Below, piece after piece: positions 936-20,128 of a DNA stretch of 64,000 nucleotides (positions are counted from its first letter, which is position 1; each line of letters starts with the position of its first letter). Source of the DNA: Candidatus Binatia bacterium (GTDB lineage: Bacteria; Desulfobacterota; Binatia; Bin18); contig OY729511.1 of assembly GCA_963422435.1 (NCBI GenBank), positions 3,850,105-3,914,104 on the forward strand, in the 5' to 3' direction. A program made the translations under genes and the position numbers. Below the pieces are notes generated by a model. The model saw nothing but the letters and a program-made list of their open reading frames with translations, made no database searches and was not told where the DNA came from.

Positions 936-3818
936 ATGAGCCATAAGAAGGGCCTGCCAATATCAATGCCTACGCAGCGCAATCGTGAAGAGGTCGTCAA
1001 TACGCAACTTGCCGTGTTGATCTCACAGCTCGGCGTCACGGCCGACGCCGAAACCATTCATGTTCACGGCAAACACAGACCCGATGTGCTGTTCCAGCTT
1101 CGCGGCCTGCGGGCTGTCATCGAGGGCAAGTTTGCCGACGTGTCGAACGCCAAACAGATCGTCCTGGACGATGCCCGCAAACGCGTTCGGGCCGGCATTG
1201 CCCACATCGCTGCGGCAACCGTCTATCCCGAGCAACTTCGCACCACGCCCACCACGCAGATGCTTGATGTGCTGGCCGAGGCACGGCTGCACTACTGCAT
1301 TATTACCGAGACCTCCGAAGGCGATGAATGGTTCGAGGGGAATCCGGCGGCGCTGATGGAAGCCCTGCGCCGGGCGCAAGAGGCGCTCAGCCAAGATGAT
1401 CTCGTTGAGCGGACAGCCAAAGCGCTGCATGGCCGACTGGTCAGCGTGACTCAGCTCTGGCTGGGCCAGGCCGGCGCGTGTGACCGTCTGTCAAACATTC
1501 TCGGTATCACCCCGCCGAAAGGTGAGACACCAGACAAAGCCCAAGGCCGGCGCGAAACAGCGGCTAAGGTCTCGGCCCTGGTACTGGCCAACGCGCTGAT
1601 TTTTCAAGAACAGTTGGCGATAACGGATGGCCGGATCACCCCGCTACGCAAAATCGAAAAGGAAGCCGATTTAGTTGGCGCTATTGCGAAGCATTGGCAC
1701 TGGATATGGGAGAACATCAACTATGTGCCGATTTTCCAGCTCGGTGAGCGCGTGCTGGATGAACTGCCGAGCAATCTCAGCACCACGCAGGCCGTCAGCG
1801 CAGTACTCTCACAAGCCACAGCCATTTGCGAGCAACAGGCCGCCCTCCGCCATGACCTGATGGGGCGCATCTATCACTGGCTGCTGCACGAAGCGAAATA
1901 TCTCGGCACCTATTACACCTCGGTGCCAGCCGCTACCCTACTGCTCAAACTGACCCTGTCGGCGCACTGGAAACAGGACTTGGGCGACCCCGCGGAATTG
2001 GCGCACTTCAAGGTGGCCGACCTGGCCTGCGGAACGGGCACGCTGCTGATGGCGGCAGCCCAGGCATTTTCCGACGCGTACATCAGAACACGCGCGGCCT
2101 CAGACAGGCCGCTGGGCCAGCCGGAACTTTCGACACTGCATCGAACCTTGATGGAGCATATGTTGCACGGCTATGACGTGCTGCCTTCAGCCGTGCACCT
2201 GACGGCCTCGACCCTGGCCCTGCTCGCCCCGGACATTGCCTTTGTGCGGATGAATCTGTTTGTCATGCCGCTCGGCGTGGACCAGGGGCAGGCGCGGTTG
2301 GGCAGCCTGGATTTTCTTGACAACAGAGCACTCAGAACACAGATGGCACTTGACTATTCGCAGATTGAGACCGTCCGTACCGGCGCGTCCATGTCCCAAG
2401 AAACGAACGCGACGCTGCCCAAGCTGGACCTGTGCGTGATGAACCCCCCCTTTGTCCGTAGCGTGGGCGGCAACCTGCTCTTCGGTTCTCTGCCGGATGA
2501 ACGCGGCGTCCTGCAAAAAGACCTCAAGAAGCGACTCACGCACCTGCCAGCAAGTGCGACCGCTGGGCTGGGCAGCGTATTTGTTGCCCTGGCCGACAAG
2601 CACCTGGAAGTTGACGGACGGCTGGCCTTCGTCCTGCCGGCGGCCCTCGCTTCGGGCGAAGCCTGGGGGCCGACGCGCCAACTGCTCGCCGAGAGCTACC
2701 ATCTGGAAACCGTGGTTTCGAGCCATGACGCCGAGCGGCCCAATTTCTCGGAAAACACCGACTTGTCCGAACTGTTGTTCATCGCCCGCAAGCGCGGCAG
2801 CGGCGAGAAGTCGGGCAGAACGACCTATATCAGCCTGTGGCGCAACCCGCGCTCAATTCATGCAGCCCTGCACTTGGCGAACGCCATCGAGCATGTTGGC
2901 TCCATTGTCGGTATTGAAGAAGCCGGCATCACCGGGGCCAAGTTGGGAGACGAAAAGCTGGCCGAATTGATGACGCTGCCGGCCGCGTCGCCAGACGATA
3001 TTTGGCTCGGCGCGCTCTTTGCCCAAGTGGAATTGCTGCGTATTTCTTGGCACTTAGCGCAAGGCAGGCTGTCGATTCCAGGCTCAACGGAGAAAATGCC
3101 GATTCCCCTGTGTCCACTCCATGATCTCGGCGCACTCGGCCCGGACCGGAAACGGATACACGAAGGGTTCAAGGTCACAAAATCCGACTGGACGCCATTT
3201 CCGGGCTTCTGGGGACACAAGGCGGACGAGGTGACAACCATCGCGCAGACACCGAACTGCAAACTGCTGGAATGGCAGGATTCCCCGCGTGGTCCACACT
3301 ACGGGTCTCATCTGTGGCAGCGCGCGGGTCGAATACTTCTCGTCGAGCGATTATGGCCAATCACTCAACGGGTTTTAGCAGTGGGATTTGAGGAGAAAGT
3401 TCTCGGTAATACATGGTGGGCTTTCGACGAGTCTCAGTTGAATGAACTGCAACGGAAGGCACTGCTTGTATGGCTCAATTCGACCCTGAGCCTGCTCTTT
3501 TATTTTGGCCGGCGGACGGTCACACGGAGTGCCTGGATGCAGATGAAGCAGCCGGCTTGGGCGTCCATGCCGGTGCTCAATGTACGCAGTCTGACGCAAG
3601 AACAACTCACACCGCTTGCCAACGCCTATGACGAGGTGGCCTCGCAATCGCTCGCTCCGCTGGCACAGTTGGACGCCGACCCGGTTCGTATCCGCATTGA
3701 CGCTACCCTCTGCGCGGTTCTCGGCCTTCCCGCAATCGCCTCTGTTCGTGCCCTGCTCGCCCGTGAGCCGGGACTGACCGGGCGGAGGATTGGAGGGTCT
3801 ATTGTTAAAGCTGGATAG
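936..3818 (+). CDS. Single-chain type IIL/IIG (MmeI-like) restriction-modification enzyme: N-terminal PD-(D/E)xK nuclease, gamma-class N6-adenine methyltransferase, C-terminal target-recognition region
   Basis: 960 aa. Candidate PD-x13-EGK nuclease motif near the N-terminus (HRPDVLFQLRGLRAVIEGKF). SAM-binding motif I (VADLACGTGTLLMAAAQ) at ~aa 360 precedes motif IV (CVMNPPF) at ~aa 505, which is the gamma-class order. A ~450-aa C-terminal extension could be the target-recognition domain. Confidence 0.55.
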   Translation: MSHKKGLPISMPTQRNREEVVNTQLAVLISQLGVTADAETIHVHGKHRPDVLFQLRGLRAVIEGKFADVSNAKQIVLDDARKRVRAGIAHIAAATVYPEQLRTTPTTQMLDVLAEARLHYCIITETSEGDEWFEGNPAALMEALRRAQEALSQDDLVERTAKALHGRLVSVTQLWLGQAGACDRLSNILGITPPKGETPDKAQGRRETAAKVSALVLANALIFQEQLAITDGRITPLRKIEKEADLVGAIAKHWHWIWENINYVPIFQLGERVLDELPSNLSTTQAVSAVLSQATAICEQQAALRHDLMGRIYHWLLHEAKYLGTYYTSVPAATLLLKLTLSAHWKQDLGDPAELAHFKVADLACGTGTLLMAAAQAFSDAYIRTRAASDRPLGQPELSTLHRTLMEHMLHGYDVLPSAVHLTASTLALLAPDIAFVRMNLFVMPLGVDQGQARLGSLDFLDNRALRTQMALDYSQIETVRTGASMSQETNATLPKLDLCVMNPPFVRSVGGNLLFGSLPDERGVLQKDLKKRLTHLPASATAGLGSVFVALADKHLEVDGRLAFVLPAALASGEAWGPTRQLLAESYHLETVVSSHDAERPNFSENTDLSELLFIARKRGSGEKSGRTTYISLWRNPRSIHAALHLANAIEHVGSIVGIEEAGITGAKLGDEKLAELMTLPAASPDDIWLGALFAQVELLRISWHLAQGRLSIPGSTEKMPIPLCPLHDLGALGPDRKRIHEGFKVTKSDWTPFPGFWGHKADEVTTIAQTPNCKLLEWQDSPRGPHYGSHLWQRAGRILLVERLWPITQRVLAVGFEEKVLGNTWWAFDESQLNELQRKALLVWLNSTLSLLFYFGRRTVTRSAWMQMKQPAWASMPVLNVRSLTQEQLTPLANAYDEVASQSLAPLAQLDADPVRIRIDATLCAVLGLPAIASVRALLAREPGLTGRRIGGSIVKAG

Positions 3819-9622: not shown

Positions 9623-11188
9623 ATGTCACTCATTACCTGGTCGTGGATCTTTCTCATCTTTTATATCGGCGGCATGTTGGCCATCGGCGTGTTTGCCGGG
9701 CGACGGGTCAAGCACGCTGACGACTTTGCCACCGCACGCGGCGCATACGGACCCTTATTTCTCGCGTTTGCCTTTGCCGCGACCACGGCCAGCGGCGCCA
9801 CCTTTCTCGGCAGCTCGGGCCTTGGCTACGAGTGGGGCCTGCCGACGATGTGGGGGTGCTTCCTGTACCCGACCGGGATGTATGTCGGCGTGTTGATCGC
9901 CATGCGCCTGGTTACCACCTCGGGCCATCGGTTCGGGAACCGCTCCATACCGGAGTACCTCGGGGACCGCTACCAATCCGAAGGCATCCGGATACTCATC
10001 TCGGTCTTTTCCTTAGTGCTATTTTTCTATCTGGCCGGGCAGTTGGTGTCCGGGCTGGTGATGTTCGAGATTATGCTGGGCCTGTCCCCCCTCTGGGCGC
10101 TGCTCATCACCACCACCGTGTTATTGATTTATGTCGTGCTCGGCGGCGCGCATGCCGACATCCTGACGGATGGGGTGCAGGGCTTCATGATGCTGCTGGT
10201 CGCGCTGATGGTGATCATCCTGTTTCTGACCGGATTTGGAGTAGACAGCGAAAGAGCGGGCCTGCCGGGCATTATCGACAGCCTGACCGAGCAGGACGCG
10301 TACCTGGTCGGCGTGCTGAATGCCGAGACCGCGCTGTATCATTCCTGGTGGTCCGTTGTGGCCATTTTTATTTCACACATACCCCTCGGCCTGCTGCCCC
10401 ATCTCGGGAACAAACTCTGGGCCTTAAAAAGCGTGAGCCAACAGCAATCGTTTATCAAACTGGCCTTCACGTTTGGGCTGACGCTGGGCATGCTCGGCTT
10501 GGGCGGTCTCCTGGCCCGCGCGATATTGGGCGATGCGCTTTATGCCGAGGGGGCGAACCCGAATCAGGCCCTGCCCCTCCTCTTCATCGAGCTGTTCCCA
10601 ACCTGGCTCGCCGCCCTCATTGGGGTGGGCGTGCTGGCGGCGATCATGTCCACCGCGGATGGGCTGGTCATCTCCTCATCCCAGGTGATTGCCAACGATC
10701 TCTACCGTCGGACCATCGTGCCTCGACTCAAGCATCCTCCGAATGCTGCGCAACTGGACCAGCGGATTTTAGCCATCAGTCGGGTGGCGACTGTTGTTGT
10801 TCTGGTACTGTGTACCGCCCTGGCCTGGGCTTTGGTCGAGACCAATATCGCCCTCATTGTCTGGATCGGGAACGGCGGCATGATGGCGGCCTTTGCCGGC
10901 CCCCTCGTGGTCGGTGCGCTCTGGCGCGGTGTCACCCGCACAGGCGCTTATGCCGGCCTGATCAGCGGTTTCGTCACCTTCCTCGTGCTGCACACCCAAA
11001 TGATTGATCCCGCCTGGTTCGCGCCCGGCCTGCTGCACACTGCCGCCTCCTGGCTGTACGCCGAGGGACCAAGCCCGTTCTCCTGTGCAACGATAGGGGA
11101 ACTCATGTCGGTCGCCTGTACCTATGTCGTATCCAAAGCAACCCAACCGCTGCCTGAGACGCACGTGCAGGCGTTGTTTGAGTCTTGA
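9623..11188 (+). CDS. Sodium:solute symporter (SSS) family transporter, paralog 1
   Basis: 521 aa with ~13 predicted TM helices. SSS-type N-terminus (HADDFATARGAYGPLFLAFAFAATTASGATFLGSSG). About 75% identical to the ORF at 14324-15901. Confidence 0.8.
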   Translation: MSLITWSWIFLIFYIGGMLAIGVFAGRRVKHADDFATARGAYGPLFLAFAFAATTASGATFLGSSGLGYEWGLPTMWGCFLYPTGMYVGVLIAMRLVTTSGHRFGNRSIPEYLGDRYQSEGIRILISVFSLVLFFYLAGQLVSGLVMFEIMLGLSPLWALLITTTVLLIYVVLGGAHADILTDGVQGFMMLLVALMVIILFLTGFGVDSERAGLPGIIDSLTEQDAYLVGVLNAETALYHSWWSVVAIFISHIPLGLLPHLGNKLWALKSVSQQQSFIKLAFTFGLTLGMLGLGGLLARAILGDALYAEGANPNQALPLLFIELFPTWLAALIGVGVLAAIMSTADGLVISSSQVIANDLYRRTIVPRLKHPPNAAQLDQRILAISRVATVVVLVLCTALAWALVETNIALIVWIGNGGMMAAFAGPLVVGALWRGVTRTGAYAGLISGFVTFLVLHTQMIDPAWFAPGLLHTAASWLYAEGPSPFSCATIGELMSVACTYVVSKATQPLPETHVQALFES

Positions 11189-11265
11189 ATAAGTTTCGAG
11201 GATAGATATGCAGGCCATCTGAACTGACACGGCATAAAAAGTTACAGAGGGAAAGCGGTAGTCAT

Positions 11266-11589
11266 ATGGCAAGTAGCATAAAAATAGGTCTTCAGATCGT
11301 CAGGGCTGTCCATCGCGCTCACAGACAGTTTCTCCGAGAGGCTGAGAGAAGACGTAAGGCTGAGAGAAGACGTAAGGCTGAGGAAAGGGAAGCCGCACGT
11401 CATCAACGAGAGTACGCGCGCTTGCTCAAACAGCAATCGCGTGAGAGAGCCGCTTACGAGCGAGCACAAGCGGTTGCAGGGAAGAATAGGTTTAAGCGGA
11501 GTCTAGAAAGCGCTCAAGCAGCTTTCGACATGAGATGTCGAGAGCGGAAAATCCTTCGTGACTCAATAGTCAATGCAGTTCTAAAATAG
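11266..11589 (+). CDS. Small Arg/Lys-rich predicted coiled-coil protein (107 aa), unknown function
   Basis: Low-GC ORF. Highly charged (ERRRKAERRRKAEEREAARHQRE), with an 18-bp tandem duplication at the nucleotide level. Stop lies 11 nt before the next gene start, so it is probably co-transcribed. Confidence 0.5.
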   Translation: MASSIKIGLQIVRAVHRAHRQFLREAERRRKAERRRKAEEREAARHQREYARLLKQQSRERAAYERAQAVAGKNRFKRSLESAQAAFDMRCRERKILRDSIVNAVLK

Positions 11590-11600
11590 AGTGGAGAACA

Positions 11601-13028
11601 ATGGATGCTCAGTATATTACGGGAACGCTGGGAGTCTTATCTTTTTCCATCATCACAACTTACTTCTTAGTTCGTAATAGATTTAAGAAGCAGATTGCAG
11701 CATACCGCTCCATCTCTGATGCGGTCGAGAAGACCACTCAGAAACTGACTCAAACTGAAACAGAGCTGACCGAAGCCCAGCAGGGACTTGAGACTGTTCG
11801 AGACGAAACGAAGGAGCTTCAAGACCTCAAGGAGAACGCTGGGCAACTTAAGGCTCAGTTGGAAGAGTCATCAAAGCAACTCGAAGAGATATCTGTCGAT
11901 ATTGAATCCAAAGAAGATAGACTGGACACCCTGGACGGGCAACTTCACCAATTAATGTCAAAAGTTGACCTCTATTCTAGAGTCGATGAATTTGTTGAGC
12001 ATGGCCTATTCGAAGAGCCAGAGTATCTATTTGAAACTACAGAGCGCTTCGCTGAAGAAATCAAACGAACCCGCGAGAAGCAAAAAGAATTGATCAAGAA
12101 TAAAGAAGCTGTCACTCTTCCTAGTTCCCTTACAGTTTCGTCAGATAAAAGGCAGGGCAAGAAAATACTTGAAGGTCAAGTCAAGCTCATGCTGACCACT
12201 TTTAATATTGAGTGTGATCTTCTTATCGGCAAGGTTAATCCTGGTAATTTTGCACGTGCTTTGGAGCGCATTGAGAAGCTGGCGGCTACGCTCGAAAAAT
12301 CTGCCGCTACTCTACATTGTGGGTTCAACATTGAATTTGTTCGACTAAAATTCGAGGAATGTAGGCAGCAGTATCAATACAAACTCAAGAAGCAGGAAGA
12401 ACAAGAGGAACAACGCCTGATTCGTGAGCAGATGCGCGAGGAACAAAAAGCGATCAAAGAATATGAGCGTGCATTGGCCCAGGCGGAAAAGGAGGAGCGG
12501 GTATACCGCGACATACTTGAGAGGGTCCGCAACGAACTTGAGCAGGCTACCGCAGGTGATCGCCTTCTCATAGAACAACGGATTGCTGACCTTGAGAGAC
12601 AACTTGCGGAAGCTGAGGCAAAAGAGGAGCGTGCCAAGAGCATGGCTGAACAGACGCGTCGTGGCCATGTCTATATAATAAGCAATCTAGGCTCATTCGG
12701 TGAAAACGTATACAAAATTGGCCTTACTCGCCGTCTAGAGCCTTTGGATCGTGTGAAAGAGCTTGGCGATGCAAGTGTACCCTTCTCATTTGACGTCCAT
12801 GCCCTAATCTACTCGGATGATGCCCCGGCACTTGAAAAGGCTTTGCATCGTAAGTTCGCTCATAACCGAGTTAACGTGGTGAACCTCCGTAAAGAGTTTT
12901 TTCGTACTGAGATTACCGCCATAAAAGAAGCAGTTGAAAAAATAACCAATGGAGAAGCTGACTTTAAGCTGACCGCGGTGGCAGAAGAATATTATGAATC
13001 CAGACGACTACAGAGAGTAGAGACGTAG
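11601..13028 (+). CDS. Membrane-anchored coiled-coil protein with C-terminal GIY-YIG-like (T5orf172/DUF4041-type) nuclease domain
   Basis: 475 aa. N-terminal TM helix (ITGTLGVLSFSIITTYFLV). Then ~330 aa of heptad-rich charged coiled coil. C-terminus: GHVYIISNLGSFGENVYKIGLTRRLEPLDRVKEL (GIY-x11-YIG spacing, with the Arg and Glu in the expected places). The gene's GC (~45%) is well below its surroundings. Confidence 0.6.
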   Translation: MDAQYITGTLGVLSFSIITTYFLVRNRFKKQIAAYRSISDAVEKTTQKLTQTETELTEAQQGLETVRDETKELQDLKENAGQLKAQLEESSKQLEEISVDIESKEDRLDTLDGQLHQLMSKVDLYSRVDEFVEHGLFEEPEYLFETTERFAEEIKRTREKQKELIKNKEAVTLPSSLTVSSDKRQGKKILEGQVKLMLTTFNIECDLLIGKVNPGNFARALERIEKLAATLEKSAATLHCGFNIEFVRLKFEECRQQYQYKLKKQEEQEEQRLIREQMREEQKAIKEYERALAQAEKEERVYRDILERVRNELEQATAGDRLLIEQRIADLERQLAEAEAKEERAKSMAEQTRRGHVYIISNLGSFGENVYKIGLTRRLEPLDRVKELGDASVPFSFDVHALIYSDDAPALEKALHRKFAHNRVNVVNLRKEFFRTEITAIKEAVEKITNGEADFKLTAVAEEYYESRRLQRVET

Positions 13029-13093
13029 AGTCAAAAAGAGGCTTTTCAGAGCTTCCTCCTACCTTCTGACCTTTCAGCAGGAGACTCAGTTAG

Positions 13094-13366
13094 GTGGACA
13101 CAGGTCTCGGTGCTGCACTGCACGAGAAAGGCAGCCGTATGAAAGATCAAAGCGTTGTCGTGCATAGCGATCCTGACATTCTCGGTGGAACTCCCGTCTT
13201 TATAGGGACACGAGTTCCGGTGAAAGCGCTATTGGATTACTTCGCTGGGGGACATACTCTGGATGACTTTCTTGATGATTTTCCTACGGTAACACGCGCT
13301 CAGGCAGTAGCAGTCTTGGAGCAGGAGGGACAGTTGCCGGCGGGTGTTCATGCGCGTTCTGCTTGA
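13094..13366 (+). CDS. DUF433-family antitoxin-like protein
   Basis: HSDPDILGGTPVFIGTRVPVKALLDYFAGGHTLDDFLDDFPTVTRAQAVAVLE matches the DUF433 pattern. Probably starts at the internal Met (13139). Overlaps the downstream DUF5615 ORF by 17 nt. Confidence 0.6.
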   Translation: MDTGLGAALHEKGSRMKDQSVVVHSDPDILGGTPVFIGTRVPVKALLDYFAGGHTLDDFLDDFPTVTRAQAVAVLEQEGQLPAGVHARSA

Positions 13367-13728
13367 TGAGTGCGTCCCCCGGAAGATTCGAGGCGAACTG
13401 CCGAGCCATGATGTCCAGACCGTAGCCGAGATGGGCTGGGGAGGCACAAAGAAATGGAGCCTTGCTCCGCCGAGCCACCTCGGAGTTCGGTGTCCTGCTG
13501 ACCGTAGATCAAGGAATCCCATATCAGCAGAATATCGGGGGTCTCTCTCTGGCTTTGGTCATCATCAAAGCGTCAAGCAATGACATCAATGACTTGCGAC
13601 CCAAGCTGTCTGAGGTGTTACGAGTACGGGAGACGATTCAGCCTGGCCAAGTGGTACAGGTTGCCTCACCACACGCTCTGGCCGTTCACATCCTTATATC
13701 ATCCAGACGGTTTCTTTCTGCGGCGTAA
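13350..13728 (+). pseudogene. DUF5615 (PIN-like) toxin partner of DUF433, disrupted by a +1 frameshift
   Basis: N-terminal half (MRVLLDECVPRKIRGELPSHDVQTVAEMGWGG) is in the frame of 13344/13350. C-terminal half (NGALLRRATSEFGVLLTVDQGIPYQQ...PGQVVQV) is in the frame of 13462. One extra A in aaagaaatgg (~13447) explains the shift. Confidence 0.55.
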
Positions 13729-13806
13729 ATAATAAGGCATTGCTGCCTGGTCAGCGAACCGTGTAGTAAGAATGAAATCACACGTCTGGCCAAAGGAGGG
13801 CTTAGT

Positions 13807-14241
13807 ATGGCCATGTCAGAACTGGAAGCGCGCATCATCAGGCTCGAAGACATCGAGGCGATAAAACAGCTCAAGGCTCGCTACTGCGAAATCTGCGACG
13901 ATATGCACAACCCCGACAGAGTCACGTCGGTCTTTGCTGAGGACGCCATCTGGGAAAGTCCAGATTTCGGCAAGGCTGAGGGCCATGAGGCGATTCGTGA
14001 ATTATTTCGCAAATTCCAAAATATGTTCAGCTTTTCCCAGCACAACATCACGAACCCCATCATCGAGGTCAACGGCGCTCGCGCCACCGGCATCTGGTAT
14101 ATCATGGGTCCGTGGACGTATGCCGAAAATGACGACGAGAAATGGCTGGCCCTGCGCTATGACGACGACTACGTGAAAGTCAACGGGGAGTGGAAGTATC
14201 AGCACTTACGGGTCGCCCTGCGGATGACGGCCGATCGATAA
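13807..14241 (+). CDS. NTF2-like / SnoaL-like domain protein
   Basis: 144 aa; LEDIEAIKQLKARYCEICDD...WESPDFG...KWLALRYDDDYVKVNGEWKY resembles the nuclear-transport-factor-2 fold family. Confidence 0.65.
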   Translation: MAMSELEARIIRLEDIEAIKQLKARYCEICDDMHNPDRVTSVFAEDAIWESPDFGKAEGHEAIRELFRKFQNMFSFSQHNITNPIIEVNGARATGIWYIMGPWTYAENDDEKWLALRYDDDYVKVNGEWKYQHLRVALRMTADR

Positions 14242-14323
14242 CACCAGCCCCTGCGCGCCGTGTGGCAAAGCGGGGTCCGTGGAATCCCCAGACTTCCCTT
14301 TGGACGTGTAAGGAAACCTGCCC

Positions 14324-15901
14324 ATGACACTTATTACTTGGTCGTGGTTCTTCCTCATCATCTATATCGGCGGCATGATAACCATCGGGGTTGTGGCCCA
14401 GCGGCGCGTTAAACATGCCGACGACTTTGCCACGGCGCGTGGCGCGTACGGACCGCTGTTTCTGGCCCTGGCATTTTCGGCGACCACTGTGAGCGGGGCA
14501 ACCTTCCTGGGCTTGCCGGGACTGAGCTACACTTGGGGGCTGACTACAATGTGGGGCGTCTTTCTGGGTCCTGCCGGCCTGTGTCTGGGCATGTTGCTCA
14601 CCATGCGTCTGATCACGAACTCCGGCCACCGGTTCGGCAACCGCTCCATCCCCGAGTACCTGGGCGACCGCTACCAGTCCGAAGGCATTCGGGTCCTGGT
14701 CTCGCTGTTTTCCCTGTTGTTGTGTTTTTATCTGGCCGGACAGCTCGTGTCGGGCTTGGTCATGTTCGAGATTCTGCTGGGTTTACCGCCGCTCTGGGCG
14801 CTGATCATCACCACAACTGTGTTGCTGATTTACGTGGTGCTGGGTGGAGCCCATGCCGATATTATTGCCGACGGAATCCAGGCCTGTCTGATGCTGCTGG
14901 TCGCCGTTGTGGTCGTCGTGCTCTTCCTCATCGGCTTTGGGCTGGATGTGGGCGAATCGGGGAGGAGCGGATTCTTGGGACTGGTCGATAATCTGGCCGC
15001 TCAGGACGAGCACCTGGTGAGTACACTCAACACGAAAACCCCGCTCTATCACTCCTGGTGGTCGATTGTCTCGCTGGTGATTTCGTTCATTCCGCTGGGT
15101 GTGCTGCCTCACCTGGGCAATAAGCTCTGGGCCTTAAAACACAGCATGTACCAGAACCGCTTTCTGACCCTCACGACCATATTTGTCATCACCTTGGCCA
15201 TGCTGACCTTGGGCGGCCTGCTGGCTCGGGCACTGCTGGGCGAGGCCCTGTTTGCCGAGGGCGCGACCTCGAATCACGCCCTGCCGACCCTCTTCATCGA
15301 GCTGTTTCCGACCTGGTTGGCGGCCCTGGTCGGTGTCGGCATCCTGGCCGCCATTATGTCCACCGCGGACGGACTCGTCGTGTCTTCCTCTCAGATTATC
15401 GCCAACGACCTCTACCGGCGGAGCATAGTCCCACGATTGAAGCATCCGCCAACCGAGGCGCAGCTCGACCGCCAAGTTCTATACATCAGCCGGGTGGCGA
15501 CCGTTGCCGTGCTGGTCATTTGCGCAGCGATAGCCTGGTCGTGGGTTGAAACCAACGTCATGCTGATTGTCTGGATTGGCACCGGCTGCGTCATGTCGGC
15601 CCTGGCCGGTTCCCTGGTATTCGGGGCCCTGTGGCGCGGGGTCACCCTGGCTGGGGCCTACGCCGGGCTGGTCAGCGGCTTTGTCAGCTTTCTGGTTCTG
15701 CACGCCCAACTGGTCGACCCGGCCTGGTTTGCCCCCGGCCTGCTGCACACAGTCGTCTCCTGGCTTTATATCGAGGGCGTCAATCCGTTCTCCTGCTCGG
15801 CCCTCGCCAGCCTCACCTCGGTCGTCTGCACCATCATCATCTCCAAAGTGACCCAGCCCCTGCCCGAGTCGCACGTCCAAGAGCTGTTCGAGGGGGTGTA
15901 A
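14324..15901 (+). CDS. Sodium:solute symporter (SSS) family transporter, paralog 2
   Basis: 525 aa; collinear with and ~75% identical to 9623-11188. Confidence 0.8.
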   Translation: MTLITWSWFFLIIYIGGMITIGVVAQRRVKHADDFATARGAYGPLFLALAFSATTVSGATFLGLPGLSYTWGLTTMWGVFLGPAGLCLGMLLTMRLITNSGHRFGNRSIPEYLGDRYQSEGIRVLVSLFSLLLCFYLAGQLVSGLVMFEILLGLPPLWALIITTTVLLIYVVLGGAHADIIADGIQACLMLLVAVVVVVLFLIGFGLDVGESGRSGFLGLVDNLAAQDEHLVSTLNTKTPLYHSWWSIVSLVISFIPLGVLPHLGNKLWALKHSMYQNRFLTLTTIFVITLAMLTLGGLLARALLGEALFAEGATSNHALPTLFIELFPTWLAALVGVGILAAIMSTADGLVVSSSQIIANDLYRRSIVPRLKHPPTEAQLDRQVLYISRVATVAVLVICAAIAWSWVETNVMLIVWIGTGCVMSALAGSLVFGALWRGVTLAGAYAGLVSGFVSFLVLHAQLVDPAWFAPGLLHTVVSWLYIEGVNPFSCSALASLTSVVCTIIISKVTQPLPESHVQELFEGV

Positions 15902-15986
15902 GCCTGAAAATGATAGGTTGCTCAGCCATACGCTCTATGCTGCTTCTAGCCGTCCATCCAAGCGTTCCGAGAAGGGCTACTTATGA

Positions 15987-16268
15987 CGAGTTTGCCGAAC
16001 AGTATCCCTCCCTATCACTGCACTGCGCCAGGACGCCACGACCGTGTGAAAGCAAGTCAGCCAGTCGGACGACCCGTTTGTCATCACCCAACGAGGACGA
16101 GCCGCGGCGGTGTTATTGAGTGCAGAAGCCTACCAGCGGGTCGAGTCTGAGCGGCAGATACCCAGGCTCCTGGCTCAGGGGAAAAAAGAAATTGCTGAAG
16201 GGCGTGGTATCGACTTGGACACGGTACTCGCCGAGGCCGATGTACTGCTTGAAACTGAAGACTTGTGA
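15987..16268 (+). pseudogene. Phd/YefM-family antitoxin remnant with an in-frame TGA and no in-frame start
   Basis: Frame reads ...TVSLPITALRQDATTV*KQVSQSDDPFVITQRGRAAAVLLSAEAYQRVESE...LETEDL*. This matches Phd/YefM throughout but is interrupted by TGA at 16047-16049. The only nearby ATG is in another frame. The stop overlaps the next ORF's GTG (GTGA). Confidence 0.55.
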
Positions 16269-16420
16269 CCGTTGGATTCACCCCGTCCGCTCGGGCGCAA
16301 TTCCTAGCTGCCATTACGTACATCCGTCGCGACAACCCAGGAGCGGCGAGACAGTTTCGCCAACGCGCCAAGCAGATTCTCCGTCGGCTTGGACAATTTC
16401 CAGAACGCAGCCCGGCTCGT
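16265..16420 (+). pseudogene. ParE/RelE-family toxin N-terminal fragment, 3' half lost
   Basis: MTVGFTPSARAQFLAAITYIRRDNPGAARQFRQRAKQILRRLGQFPE matches the ParE N-terminus. The similarity is lost where the convergent secreted-protein gene ends (16420). Confidence 0.5.
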
Positions 16421-16938
16421 CAGATGATGGGGGTATCCTCCACATCAGTCATCTCCATGTGTTGGGTGCTCTGGTTCCACTCAAATGTCGTGGTCTCCCC
16501 TGGACTAGGGAAACCCGAGAGCCGGCACGTGCCACTCGCCCCTTTCAAAAACGCCTCCCCTGTCGTCGTTACGGTGAGCCTGGCCTCCGCAAATAAGACG
16601 CCATTATCATAAGCCTTGGCGGTGTGGGGCCCATCGCCGAGTTCGCCCCAGTTCCAGATGGCGACAAAACCGTTGTCGGTATCTCCACACACCTCTTGGG
16701 TATCGGGCCGCTGACTGCCGTATAGCATGGGAACTGGATTCGGAATGCCCTCTGCAATGAGGGCCCCATCGTTGAATTCAACGGTGATGTCTCCCTCAGC
16801 GTCACATTTCCATCCGCTGATCACCCCAACACCCGATAATTTGGTCCCGTCGCTCGGCACACCAAGGGCAGACTGGGCATGAACCAGAGCCGGGACCAGA
16901 ACAATGAGTGTAGTAGAAATACAATGCAGAAAAGACAT
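16420..16938 (-). CDS. Secreted protein of unknown function (signal peptide)
   Basis: 172 aa; N-terminal MSFLHCISTTLIVLVPALVHA-QS signal peptide. AGGAGG SD upstream. Confidence 0.55.
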   Translation of the reverse strand: MSFLHCISTTLIVLVPALVHAQSALGVPSDGTKLSGVGVISGWKCDAEGDITVEFNDGALIAEGIPNPVPMLYGSQRPDTQEVCGDTDNGFVAIWNWGELGDGPHTAKAYDNGVLFAEARLTVTTTGEAFLKGASGTCRLSGFPSPGETTTFEWNQSTQHMEMTDVEDTPII

Positions 16939-17092
16939 CAGTACCTCCTAACTAAGAAAGAGTCCTTTTTTCTTTAGCTCTTCTATTTATCATTCCGTTT
17001 AGCTGCCTCTCATTTTTCCCGCCGTCGTTTCCACAAGAAGAGCAACCAGTACAAAAACCGATTCATAGTTCTCTCCCGCTGGGCTATTCCTA

Positions 17093-17791
17093 TTAACTGA
17101 TATACAGGGAGAAAGTCGAAAGCGCAGCAGAAGACGGGAGGGTAATTTCAATCTCAACAGTGTCGTCTTCTATGACAGGGGACCACACCGGAGGGTCGGG
17201 CGGCAGAGGACCGTTTACAGCAGTAGACTCCTCTGCCTGTGGGAGGGGACCGTACCCTAGCGGAGGGTCAGCAGGCAGCTCACGAGTCTGGGGAGTGAAA
17301 TCGTGCTCTGTCAGGGGAGCAAAGGTTTGGATGGGGCCAACCGGACTAGAGAAGCGCAGTTCTGCGCCTGCGGGCAAGATGGCAGACACGGCAATTCGTA
17401 GCGCCATCGCACCGGGTGAGGTCACGCTGGGCGCACTGAGCAGCGTCCCATCGCTCAGCGTGGTCCATTCCAGACGTGGCGCCATATCGTCACGATAGGC
17501 AGCGGGAATCTCCCGGCCAAAGCCGATTTGCAAAGGGAAGTCCTCTCTCTGCTCCCACTCCGCTTGCTCAGAGTTGGTGACCGCTGGCAACGTAATGCGG
17601 AGTAATTGGGGAATAGGTGTATCCTGTGTGAGCGACTGCGCTTGCTGCGGCAGATGAGTGTCGTCCTCCACTTCTGGGGGTCTGAATGCGCCGTCAATTC
17701 CTTGTGCCTCGCCGATAGCCGAAAAACTGAGAACCAGGATGAAAAAAAAGGGCAGAAAGAGAATATGTAGAGAAAACACTGATAACCTCAC
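17093..17791 (-). CDS. Secreted or membrane-anchored protein of unknown function (GTG start, signal peptide)
   Basis: 232 aa; hydrophobic leader LHILFLPFFFILVLSFSAIGEA. Pro-rich C-terminal region. GTG start 3 nt from the large palindrome. Confidence 0.5.
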   Translation of the reverse strand: MRLSVFSLHILFLPFFFILVLSFSAIGEAQGIDGAFRPPEVEDDTHLPQQAQSLTQDTPIPQLLRITLPAVTNSEQAEWEQREDFPLQIGFGREIPAAYRDDMAPRLEWTTLSDGTLLSAPSVTSPGAMALRIAVSAILPAGAELRFSSPVGPIQTFAPLTEHDFTPQTRELPADPPLGYGPLPQAEESTAVNGPLPPDPPVWSPVIEDDTVEIEITLPSSAALSTFSLYIS

Positions 17792-17793
17792 AG

Positions 17794-17838
17794 CATCCCT
17801 AAGATATAGTTTTAGCCACTAATTATATCTTAGGGATG
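17794..17838. promoter_or_regulatory. 15-bp perfect inverted repeat (CATCCCTAAGATATA / TATATCTTAGGGATG, 15-nt spacer); candidate operator or RBS-sequestering hairpin
   Basis: Seen directly in the sequence. Lies in the AT-rich divergent region between the secreted-protein gene (17791, minus) and the XRE regulator (17947, plus). An 11-nt direct repeat AGATATAGTTT occurs at 17802 and 17856. Confidence 0.6.
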
Positions 17839-17946
17839 TTTCCCTATCACCATCAGATATAGTTTGTCAAGTAAATACCACTGTGGGTCAATTCATCCGA
17901 CCTAGAAGCGTCTTCATACTGCCCTTGAACTGCGAGGCGGTTATGT

Positions 17947-18270
17947 ATGGATGACCGAAAACTATTGGGAAAGCGGATCAAAAGCCTGCGAAAATCAAAG
18001 GGGCATACCCAGGAGCGGCTGGCGGAAATCATGGACATCAGTTCCAACTATCTGGCTGGCATTGAGCGAGGAGAGGCAAATCCAACCCTGGCTCTGCTTG
18101 AGCGTCTTTCCACGGGTCTGGAGGTCCCGCTGCCCGAATTGTTCAAGTATCGCCCGGAGGAAGGATACCAACCGGCCCAACTTCGCCAGAGGCTGGACCG
18201 GCTGGTCAACGAAGCCGGTGACGGAGAGCTGCCCCGGCTGACTCGTGTTTTTGAGGCGTTGTTGGAGTAA
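17947..18270 (+). CDS. XRE-family (Cro/C1-type) HTH transcriptional regulator
   Basis: 107 aa; LGKRIKSLRKSKGHTQERLAEIMDISSNYLAGIERGEANPTLALLERL is a canonical HTH_3 motif. Confidence 0.85.
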   Translation: MDDRKLLGKRIKSLRKSKGHTQERLAEIMDISSNYLAGIERGEANPTLALLERLSTGLEVPLPELFKYRPEEGYQPAQLRQRLDRLVNEAGDGELPRLTRVFEALLE

Positions 18271-18358
18271 CACCGGGGCGAAGGCCGCCCCGCTTTGCCA
18301 CGGGGTGTACACTCATACGTATTGACATTTATGGTGAGTAGAGACGAAAAAAGAGCGG

Positions 18359-18556
18359 ATGACCACGCACACAACGCAATTTGTCTATTGGGAGGAAGAT
18401 GGAGCGTGGCTAGGCTATCTCCACGAGTATCCTGATTACTGGACGCAAGGCGAGACGCTGGACGCCCTGAAAGACCATCTGCGAGACTTGTATGCTGACC
18501 TGACCGGCGGGGACCTGACCGGTATCCGCAAAATGGACGAATTAGCCTTGACATGA
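18359..18556 (+). CDS. hicB: HicB-family antitoxin (short, N-terminal domain only)
   Basis: 65 aa; FVYWEEDGAWLGYLHEYPDYWTQGETLDALKDHLRDLY matches the HicB N-terminal domain. Its stop overlaps the next ATG (ATGA). Confidence 0.6.
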   Translation: MTTHTTQFVYWEEDGAWLGYLHEYPDYWTQGETLDALKDHLRDLYADLTGGDLTGIRKMDELALT

Positions 18557-18768
18557 AACGAGTCGCTCTAGTCAAACGGATTGAAGGATTTGGTTGTATT
18601 TTGGTAAGGCATGGCGGTAGGCACGCCTCTCATCTGCATAGGAAACAATAACAATATTGGTATCGTAATCCGGTAACCGGAGTTTATCAGCCGGTTCCTC
18701 GTCAGCGGAAAATCAAAGAGAATCTAGCCAAGCATATTATCAAACAGTTGAGTAATCCTTCTGGTTAG
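18553..18768 (+). pseudogene. hicA: HicA-family toxin with an in-frame TAA at codon 33
   Basis: MKRVALVKRIEGFGCILVRHGGRHASHLHRKQ*QYWYRNPVTGVYQPVPRQRKIKENLAKHIIKQLSNPSG*. Both halves resemble HicA (EGFGCILVR.GGRH...H and the C-terminal ...L...HIIKQ), joined by TAA at 18649-18651. Confidence 0.5.
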
Positions 18769-18840
18769 ACGGTAAATAGATACCGCCAAAGCCGCCCCGG
18801 TCTGAGGAATTGGAGACACACTGCACGGAGGACACACACC

Positions 18841-19488
18841 ATGCTGAAAATCTACGGGACGACCCTGAGCAATTATTACAGCACGGCCAAGGCCGCGCTG
18901 GTCGAAAAGGGACTCGCCTTTGAGGAAGTCCCGGTTATGCCGAGCCCGAAACCCGAAGTCCTAGCCAAAAGCCCGATGGGCAAGGTGCCCTATATTGAGG
19001 TCGAAGGCACAACCTTGACCGAGACAAACATCATCTTCGACTATCTCGAAGATATCCAGCCACAGCCGGCACTGTATCCCAGCGACCCCTGGGCTAGGGC
19101 CAAAGTCAAAGAAATCATCCGGTGTGTCGAGCTGTATCTCGACACACCGGCGCGGCGCCACCTGCCGACGGTGTACTTCGGCGCGCCGGTTGATCAGGCC
19201 GCATACGACGCAGTCCGGCCATTACTGGAAAACGGGCTACGGGCGCTCAAGCAACTCGCCCGCTTCGAGCCCTATATCGCCGGCGACACATTTACCTTCG
19301 CCGACCTGACCGCCTATTTCGAGATGCGCTTCACCAATCTGCACACTACGCAAATCTATAACTGGGACATTACGGCTGACGTGCCCGGCCTTGGCGAGTA
19401 TTTGCACTTGGTCGGCGAACGACCGGCGGTCAACGCGGTCGATTCCGTCATGCAACGAGATTTTGCGGCCTTCAAGAACAAGAGCTAG
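18841..19488 (+). CDS. Glutathione S-transferase
   Basis: 215 aa; N-terminal thioredoxin-like GST domain (MLKIYGTTLSNYYSTAKAALVEKGLAFEEV...PMGKVPYIEVEG) and C-terminal helical domain. Confidence 0.8.
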   Translation: MLKIYGTTLSNYYSTAKAALVEKGLAFEEVPVMPSPKPEVLAKSPMGKVPYIEVEGTTLTETNIIFDYLEDIQPQPALYPSDPWARAKVKEIIRCVELYLDTPARRHLPTVYFGAPVDQAAYDAVRPLLENGLRALKQLARFEPYIAGDTFTFADLTAYFEMRFTNLHTTQIYNWDITADVPGLGEYLHLVGERPAVNAVDSVMQRDFAAFKNKS

Positions 19489-19504
19489 TCCGCAGTATCG
19501 AGCC

Positions 19505-20128
19505 ATGGGCAGCAGCAAGACCGCGCCGGCGATTCACTACCGACCAATGACCGTTGAAGACGTTGGGGCGGTGCCGATTGGTCATCAGGGCGACGAGCAG
19601 GAGGTCCGCGCGCGCATTCAAGACCTTGGATCAAGCGCGATATTGGCATTTGACGGTACGCAGCACGTCGGCCAACTCCAGTTTCGGCGCTACGCCGCGG
19701 ATACCCGTTCGCCCAAGGGGCTGTGGGACCCCCTGTATTGGGGCGAGTTCGGCAACGCCGCGCCCGCGCTGCCTGACCACAGCCTGTCCATTTACTGTTA
19801 CCACGTCGGCCAACTCGACGACACCGACGACCGAGACGCGCGATATCAGGGCCGAGGTATTGGCCTGCGTCTCTTGGACTCTTTTTTGGACTGGGCCAAG
19901 CAGGCCGGCTTCGAGGCGGTGACGGCCAAGGCTACCCCTATCCCACGGGCCGTCATGGCTTTTATGGGCGGGCAGCCACCCAAAGCCTATCTGGCACGCG
20001 GCTTTGAGGTCTTTTCGAGCGTGGTCGATACCGAGCTGCGCGATATCGTGAAAGACAGGCAACTCGTGCCGGCTGAGGCGGACTACGATAGCGCCGCACA
20101 GGTCAGCTATTGCGTGAAGTTTTTCTAA
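19505..20128 (+). CDS. GNAT-family N-acetyltransferase
   Basis: Motif A QGRGIGLRLLDSFLDWAKQAG. The start was chosen at the first ATG after the GST stop; 19546 is an alternative. Confidence 0.6.
   Translation: MGSSKTAPAIHYRPMTVEDVGAVPIGHQGDEQEVRARIQDLGSSAILAFDGTQHVGQLQFRRYAADTRSPKGLWDPLYWGEFGNAAPALPDHSLSIYCYHVGQLDDTDDRDARYQGRGIGLRLLDSFLDWAKQAGFEAVTAKATPIPRAVMAFMGGQPPKAYLARGFEVFSSVVDTELRDIVKDRQLVPAEADYDSAAQVSYCVKFF

Follow-up and report, generated by a model that had tools for sequence, protein, structure and literature searches.

The 64,000-nt stretch of Candidatus Binatia DNA analyzed here (hereafter the window) carries, between positions 15983 and 16404, what are very probably the remains of a chromosomal operon of the type II toxin-antitoxin (TA) class, which paired a Phd/YefM antitoxin with a ParE/RelE toxin and no longer functions. 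Comparison with related genomes indicates that the module was translationally coupled via a GTGA overlap and that it is ancestral to this Candidatus Binatia clade. Neither of its genes can now yield a full-length product, so the module as a whole would do nothing, and we infer that the locus is not expressed. The decay of chromosomal TA modules is well known, and this locus is an ordinary pseudogenized type II TA module rather than a new kind of system or mechanism. Its proper annotation is a Phd/YefM pseudogene followed by a ParE gene fragment, not a pair of hypothetical proteins of 52 and 115 amino acids.

The reference point for this assignment is a set of orthologous loci, which we obtained by scanning GTDB species representatives with the 525-aa sodium:solute symporter encoded upstream of the antitoxin. 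The scan returned about 25 loci with symporters 81-95% identical, nearly all of them from Candidatus Binatia MAGs and one titled Thermodesulfobacteriota, and across these loci the gene order SnoaL, symporter, Phd, ParE, convergent secreted-protein gene(s), XRE-type HTH (107 aa), GST and DEAD helicase is conserved. Eight of them (L002, L005, L008, L011, L012, L017, L019 and L028) retain an intact pair at the syntenic site, with a 93-codon Phd and a 96-codon ParE joined by the GTGA overlap downstream of the 525-aa symporter gene (tblastn), and this bears out an earlier note on the window, made from its letters, which had called the locus a decayed Phd/YefM-ParE module. Other relatives are damaged in ways of their own. 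L003, which is the same locus as L014, has a Phd frameshift at an A-run and a ParE in which W85 has become TAG; L004 has a Phd lacking codons ~5-47 and a ParE in which W85 has become TGA; in L016 the C-terminal half of Phd alone remains; Phd scraps persist in L010, L027 and L026 and a ParE scrap in L024, and in several genomes nothing is left. The presence of intact pairs alongside such varied damage at one site implies that the module is ancestral here and has been lost repeatedly, its decay in several of the sister genomes being independent. None of 72 loci from GTDB representatives came from a genome of the same species with the module intact.

Within this comparative set, Trp85 of ParE has turned into a stop codon twice by different mutations, TGG to TAG in L003 (6278-6568) and TGG to TGA in L004 (6001-6291). 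Short ParE proteins also occur in other assemblies (P0002 and P0004, 84 aa; P0001, 75 aa), a recurrent C-terminal truncation in the clade.

The antitoxin pseudogene lies on the forward strand at 15983..16268, running from an ATG at 15983 to the native TGA stop at 16266-16268, and comprises 93 codons once repaired. The Pfam profile PF02604 (PhdYeFM_antitox) aligns straight across an internal TGA with an E-value of 7e-13 and 48.5 bits against a gathering cut-off of 29.8, covering profile positions 4-69 of 74. The NCBIfam model TIGR01552 (phd_fam) also matches (E 1e-8, 34.3 bits versus 20.8), and the pseudogene is 84% identical to the intact 93-aa orthologues (tblastn, E 7e-42). Frame 3 of 15981-16268 translates as L*RVCRTVSLPITALRQDATTV*KQVSQSDDPFVITQRGRAAAVLLSAEAYQRVESERQ...LLETEDL*, with the internal TGA at 16047-16049, and reproduces the interrupted reading ...TVSLPITALRQDATTV*KQVSQSDDPFVITQRGRAAAVLLSAEAYQRVE... 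on which the earlier note had based its claim of an in-frame TGA in the antitoxin. The frame it had described does hold the Phd homology, but it has a stop at 15984 and is without a start codon, and the sole ATG, at 15983, sits in another frame (MTSLPNSIPPYHC..., MTSLPNSIP..., then out of frame); intact Phd homologues start with MANLPNIIPITALRQDAATVLKQVS.

What puts the real ATG out of frame is a 4-bp tandem duplication, TCCC|TCCC at 16005..16012 on the forward strand (copies at 16005-08 and 16009-12), which causes a +1 frameshift after Phd codon 8. In our DNA alignment (A1) the window reads AGTATCCCTCCCTATCAC against ATTA----TCCCTATCAC in the orthologues, six of six of which have the 4-column gap, and in silico deletion of one TCCC copy yields a 93-codon ORF, MTSLPNSIPITALRQDATTV*KQVS..., in which the TGA is the sole remaining defect. 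The single-lesion account of the antitoxin given earlier was therefore right about the TGA and missed the frameshift upstream of it. The TGA itself (16047..16049, forward strand) stands in place of Leu21: orthologues carry GTATTAAAG or GTGTTAAAG where the window has GTGTGAAAG, the intact proteins read V-L-KQVS, and leucine is encoded in all eight intact orthologues. Since codon 21 is TTA in all six orthologues aligned at the DNA level, the window TGA amounts to a single T-to-G change at 16048. Both the duplication and the TTA-to-TGA change are private to the window relative to those six orthologues. Whereas a working family member would be an uninterrupted ORF of ~80-95 aa with its own start, the window Phd is broken at codons 8 and 21 and belongs to the family by descent only, as a pseudogene. 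The only piece of it still called as a gene, in the Logan contig (L001) described below, is a residual 52-aa ORF with a GTG start (16110..16268, forward strand) that corresponds to the C-terminal, toxin-binding half of Phd. Upstream, the leader or candidate promoter region of the operon (15902..15982, forward strand) aligns with the upstream DNA of L002, L005, L008, L017, L011 and L003, with ~80 nt conserved. Scans of 15800-17000 for a simple sigma-70 consensus promoter and for terminators gave no match, and a repeat search upstream of Phd found no operator palindrome.

Damage of this kind could reflect errors of sequencing or assembly in a module that is truly intact in the organism, and related long-read MAGs do show a homopolymer-type Phd frameshift (L003, at GGGAAAAAAG) that is a possible error of this type. 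For the window we regard such an origin as very improbable. Run ERR11641160 has been assembled independently in Logan, and a 13,984-bp contig of that assembly matches window positions 10420-19582 at 100% identity (9,163 bp without mismatch or gap), so the lesions were not made by one assembler; two assemblies, moreover, contain the exact 172-aa protein encoded beside the toxin remnant. Should the Logan contig come from the same sample, this agreement rules out assembler artefacts and not systematic read error. Of the three lesions at the locus, one duplicates 4 bp in tandem, one is a transversion and one is a structural junction, with no homopolymer slip among them; the C-terminal half of ParE is missing throughout the 64-kb window, and the junction is backed by homology to a second locus on its far side.

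Programmed recoding could also restore an antitoxin, through a frameshift at CCCTCCCT combined with read-through of the TGA or insertion of selenocysteine, given that, beyond the two lesions, nothing else interrupts the frame before the native stop. We reject this explanation, whose likelihood we put close to nil. The aligned orthologues have a plain leucine codon (TTA) and lack the 4-bp insert, which means that no recoding signal is conserved at either site. An Rfam search of the whole window returned no element, SECIS included; TGA terminates 11 of the 28 long ORFs in the window, Phd itself among them, and is the commonest stop there. Two independent recoding events would be required within 40 nt, and with the partner toxin gone the antitoxin would have nothing to neutralize. 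The earlier interpretation of the TGA as a nonsense mutation and not as recoding thus holds.

What remains of the toxin gene is a 5' remnant at 16265..16404 on the forward strand, consisting of codons 1-47 of a ParE/RelE-family toxin, which cover no more than the N-terminal alpha-hairpin. Its GTG start (16265) and the TGA stop of Phd (16266-16268) overlap in a GTGA at 16265-16268, as had been noted before and as is the case in all eight intact orthologues. The GTG opens a 115-codon ORF of which residues 5-53 alone match PF05016 (ParE_toxin; E 7e-6, 27.0 bits versus a cut-off of 23), at profile positions 3-50 of 89, and residues 1-47 are 87% identical to the 96-aa orthologues (tblastn, E 1e-22). 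A complete ParE fold comprises the alpha-hairpin, a beta-sheet and a C-terminal segment in ~90-100 aa; here homology ends at residue 47. A permissive tblastn search of the 64-kb window (E up to 10, word size 2) detected nothing similar to ParE residues 48-96 in the vicinity of the locus, whichever the frame and including past 16420, and the sole match anywhere in the window lies at 414-455 with a chance-level E of 8.2. The remainder of the ORF (16405..16612, forward strand) is a non-homologous run-on tail that has no ParE similarity and is not toxin coding sequence; it overlaps the 3' end of the convergent 172-aa gene (16420-16938, reverse strand) in antisense orientation.

The break in the toxin can be placed precisely. 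Homology to the orthologous loci that retain ParE stops at 16401-16406 and resumes at ~17800-17930, before the HTH gene (blastn, window 13000-20000), and from exactly 16405 onward the window is 82% identical over 648 bp to the 3' flank and body of a secreted-protein cassette in another Binatia locus, L077. Together these two observations pin a recombination or deletion junction to 16404/16405 from both sides, with ParE homology on its left and cassette 3'-flank homology on its right: ParE runs to ...CAATTTCCAG and is followed by ACGCAGCCCGGCTCG-TCA, which matches the L077 cassette flank. ParE codon 47 is thereby fused to a point 15 nt past the last stop codon of the cassette. A repeat search at 16404/5 found no repeat that accounts for the breakpoint. 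The earlier note had described a toxin cut off after ~50 residues exactly where a convergent gene ends, with its 3' half replaced; the orthologue comparison sets the end at residue 47, places it within 16 nt of the stop codon at 16420-16422 and identifies the replacing DNA as related to the L077 cassette.

The distal gene of this cassette, which abuts the ParE stump, encodes the convergent 172-aa protein with a signal-peptide-like N-terminus (16420..16938, reverse strand; stop codon 16420-16422). No Pfam family matches it, and its 139 homologues (100-300 aa) are without a family name and nearly all without a Pfam domain; nearly all come from ENA/NCBI metagenome assemblies, often in several copies per genome, and the homologues make up an uncharacterized, clade-restricted family. 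The proximal gene is a 232-aa ORF (17093..17791, reverse strand) that represents only the N-terminus (Lysyl_endopep_N) of a longer secreted protease: it shares 80% identity with the N-terminal part of the 370-aa L077 protein (2443-3555) and 54% with the start of a 683-aa Lysyl_endopep_N plus Trypsin protein in L078 (3840-5891). Homology between the window and L077 breaks at 17046 and 17093, between which ~2.8 kb are absent from the window relative to L077: the remainder of the protease gene, an insertion sequence (IS) and a gene for a 494-aa protein. This absence, taken together with the N-terminal-only match, indicates that the protease gene is itself truncated.

Close relatives of the cassette occur in mobile surroundings. 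An 81% identical copy of the 172-aa gene in L077 follows the 370-aa Lysyl_endopep_N protein, the IS (DUF4096 and DDE_Tnp_1) and the 494-aa protein, all within the same GST-HTH neighborhood, and a 67% identical copy in L078 directly follows the 683-aa Lysyl_endopep_N plus trypsin protease on a contig that is plasmid-like in carrying TrfA, ParA-like, MobA/MobL, relaxase and Replicase genes. The cassette thus looks like a fast-turnover element, and these relatives would favor cassette turnover over a simple deletion as the source of the junction. If so, the turnover of a mobile secreted-protein cassette in an adjacent variable slot can clip a neighboring gene. Plain deletion beside an ancestral neighbor gene had been the first candidate, because 172-aa homologues of 30-49% identity occupy the same convergent slot beside the TA module in L025, L011, L002 and other genomes; the relatives near an IS and on the plasmid-like contig make it the less favored of the two.

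In this slot the copies of the 172-aa family reach only 30-49% identity, against ~90% for the flanking genes. Members of the family were seen in loci L002, L005, L009, L011, L012, L025, L035, L077 and L078.

We propose that a rearrangement in the variable slot joined ParE codon 47 to the two-gene cassette, that is, to the truncated Lysyl_endopep_N protease gene and the 172-aa gene, and that the resulting loss of ParE codons 48-96, comprising the whole beta-sheet and the C-terminus, killed the toxin. The missing codons may have gone either by deletion in a cassette-bearing ancestor or with the arrival of the cassette. With no toxin left, the antitoxin would then have drifted, acquiring the 4-bp duplication, the TTA-to-TGA change at codon 21 and an excess of private changes that include the helix-breaking L59P. 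That the toxin was inactivated first we infer from the addiction logic of type II TA systems, under which a cell does not survive loss of the antitoxin as long as the toxin remains active. In the mildly damaged sister genomes the inactivating stop likewise lies in the toxin (W85*, twice independently). Truncation of even the C-terminus of ParE is reported to lower toxicity (PMC11925232), and the window ParE is missing its entire beta-sheet as well as its C-terminus.

The substitution pattern of the antitoxin is suggestive of a recent loss of constraint. Private substitutions in the window Phd number 8 nonsynonymous (I7S, A18T, L21*, K26Q, A52V, L59P, A86V and A90T) versus 2 synonymous, compared with a pooled 21:25 in six intact lineages, an excess with a Fisher p of 0.08, rising to 0.14 when the nonsense codon is left out. 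Pairs involving the window have a dN/dS of 0.13-0.34, only slightly above the 0.06-0.32 among the eight intact orthologues.

In principle, the cell could still produce both the 52 aa from the C-terminal half of Phd and the ParE hairpin of 47 residues, which raises the question of whether these remnants retain a function. Phd/YefM antitoxins bind their toxins through the C-terminal half, the very half that the 52-aa ORF would encode, and this ORF might therefore act as an orphan mini-antitoxin against a paralogous or incoming ParE; L004, L016 and L025 likewise carry a shortened "mini-Phd", in L025 beside a full-length ParE. The ParE stump might for its part still engage gyrase, given that, according to preprint 10.1101/2025.07.24.666505, VcParE2 contacts gyrase through its alpha-hairpin. 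We nonetheless consider residual function quite unlikely: the 52-aa fragment is without the native start and ribosome-binding site (RBS) and relies on an internal GTG, it has private changes at otherwise conserved positions (A52V, L59P and A86V), and there is no other ParE gene within the 64-kb window.

The mini-Phd allele (L004 5855-6001, L025 11927-12073 and L016 9610-9756) arises from an in-frame deletion of codons ~5-47, which leaves the RBS (AAGGAG) and the ATG in place along with the toxin-binding C-terminal half (MASLSRQAESERQILRLL...). It may be an antitoxin without DNA binding. The full-length ParE that it adjoins in L025 differs at a conserved arginine (R69H).

In their intact form the Binatia loci are like known type II modules that combine Phd/YefM with ParE/RelE, sharing with them the antitoxin-first operon, the 4-nt GTGA overlap, the PF02604 and PF05016 domains, and the sizes of the antitoxin (~93 aa) and the toxin (96 aa). 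The intact orthologous toxin is nearest to the ParE structure 6X0A, "plasmid stabilization system" (E 3e-4), and the antitoxin is nearest by sequence to PfiA (9W3A) of the Pf4 prophage PfiAT and to Rv2865 (3G5O), although similarity to all three is remote (E 3e-4 to 4e-3). Unlike these known modules, the window has both genes broken. Work by Pandey and Gerdes from 2005 reportedly provides an example of TA pseudogenes, or of TA loss, in host-restricted or reductively evolving bacteria. The window locus is like such cases in that a chromosomal module was inactivated by truncation, frameshift and nonsense mutation and in that neighboring TA toxins (DUF5615 and HicA, below) are also disrupted; it differs in that the intact ancestor and several decay paths stand side by side in sister genomes. 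C-terminally truncated ParE (PMC11925232) offers a second comparison. There, as in the W85-stop alleles with their 84-aa proteins (P0002, P0004, L003 and L004), loss of the C-terminus inactivates ParE, but the truncation in the window goes much further and leaves only the first 47 of 96 residues.

Seen across the clade, the comparative set illustrates the death of a TA module, from an intact ancestor through independent toxin-inactivating mutations to later decay of the antitoxin, and could be drawn on in broader work on how Binatia symbionts lose their TA modules. Sponges are among the reported sources of Binatia MAGs, and a host-associated lifestyle is likely for the MAGs considered here. 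The wider picture, in which a vertically inherited Phd-ParE module at a fixed site in probably sponge-associated Binatia has been dismantled repeatedly, independently and toxin first, is one we advance tentatively and with considerable doubt. Were it to hold genome-wide, it would mean that TA toxins are being purged across the lineage, and the orphan or mini antitoxins that survive might be retained as anti-addiction factors.

Two more TA modules with broken toxins, DUF433/DUF5615 and HicB/HicA, lie inside the stretch confirmed by the Logan contig. In the first, a TA-like pair spanning 13094-13728, DUF433 (13094-13366) is intact (PF04255, E 2e-17) and the downstream DUF5615/PIN-like gene is frameshifted, with residues 1-38 at 13350-13463 and residues 30-125 at 13432-13725; in L003/L014 the same gene is uninterrupted at 125 aa. 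In the second (18359-18768), a HicB-like 65-aa ORF at 18359-18556 with a weak UPF0150 match is followed by a HicA-like gene into which 30 nt have been inserted in frame, among them a TAA at 18649-18651. HicA is intact at 60 aa in L019 (7398-7219), and most sister loci have lost the HicB C-terminus and HicA by deletion, homology stopping at ~18516 and resuming at ~18817. The antitoxin-side partners DUF433 and HicB, at least, remain open while DUF5615 and HicA are dead. Counting the truncated protease gene, the 13-19 kb region of the window is rich in gene wrecks.

Some further features of the neighborhood deserve mention. In several relatives, among them intact-module loci, a 90-230-bp copy of the symporter 3' end (window 15670-15896, ~92% identical) sits just downstream of ParE (L005 10246-10472, L008 10246-10469, L017 10295-10492, L002 6727-6814, L009 12416-12530 and L012 17486-17574), so that the TA module is bracketed by direct repeats in these loci. 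The downstream copy has been lost from the window; the repeat could be the remnant of a tandem symporter array or an insertion footprint. At the other end of the variable slot, a region conserved in sister loci (17794-17865, alignment A2) marks the right edge and contains an 18-nt inverted repeat (17794-17811 / 17821-17838, 94% complementary). A repeated AGATATAGTTT motif also lies between the cassette and the XRE-type HTH gene (17947-18270), and the inverted repeat and motif are a candidate operator for the HTH regulator. Further upstream, between two symporter paralogues, a 475-aa gene at 11601-13028 with SNIPE/T5orf172/MUG113 domains (L001 gene table) may be a nuclease-type or defense-related insertion.
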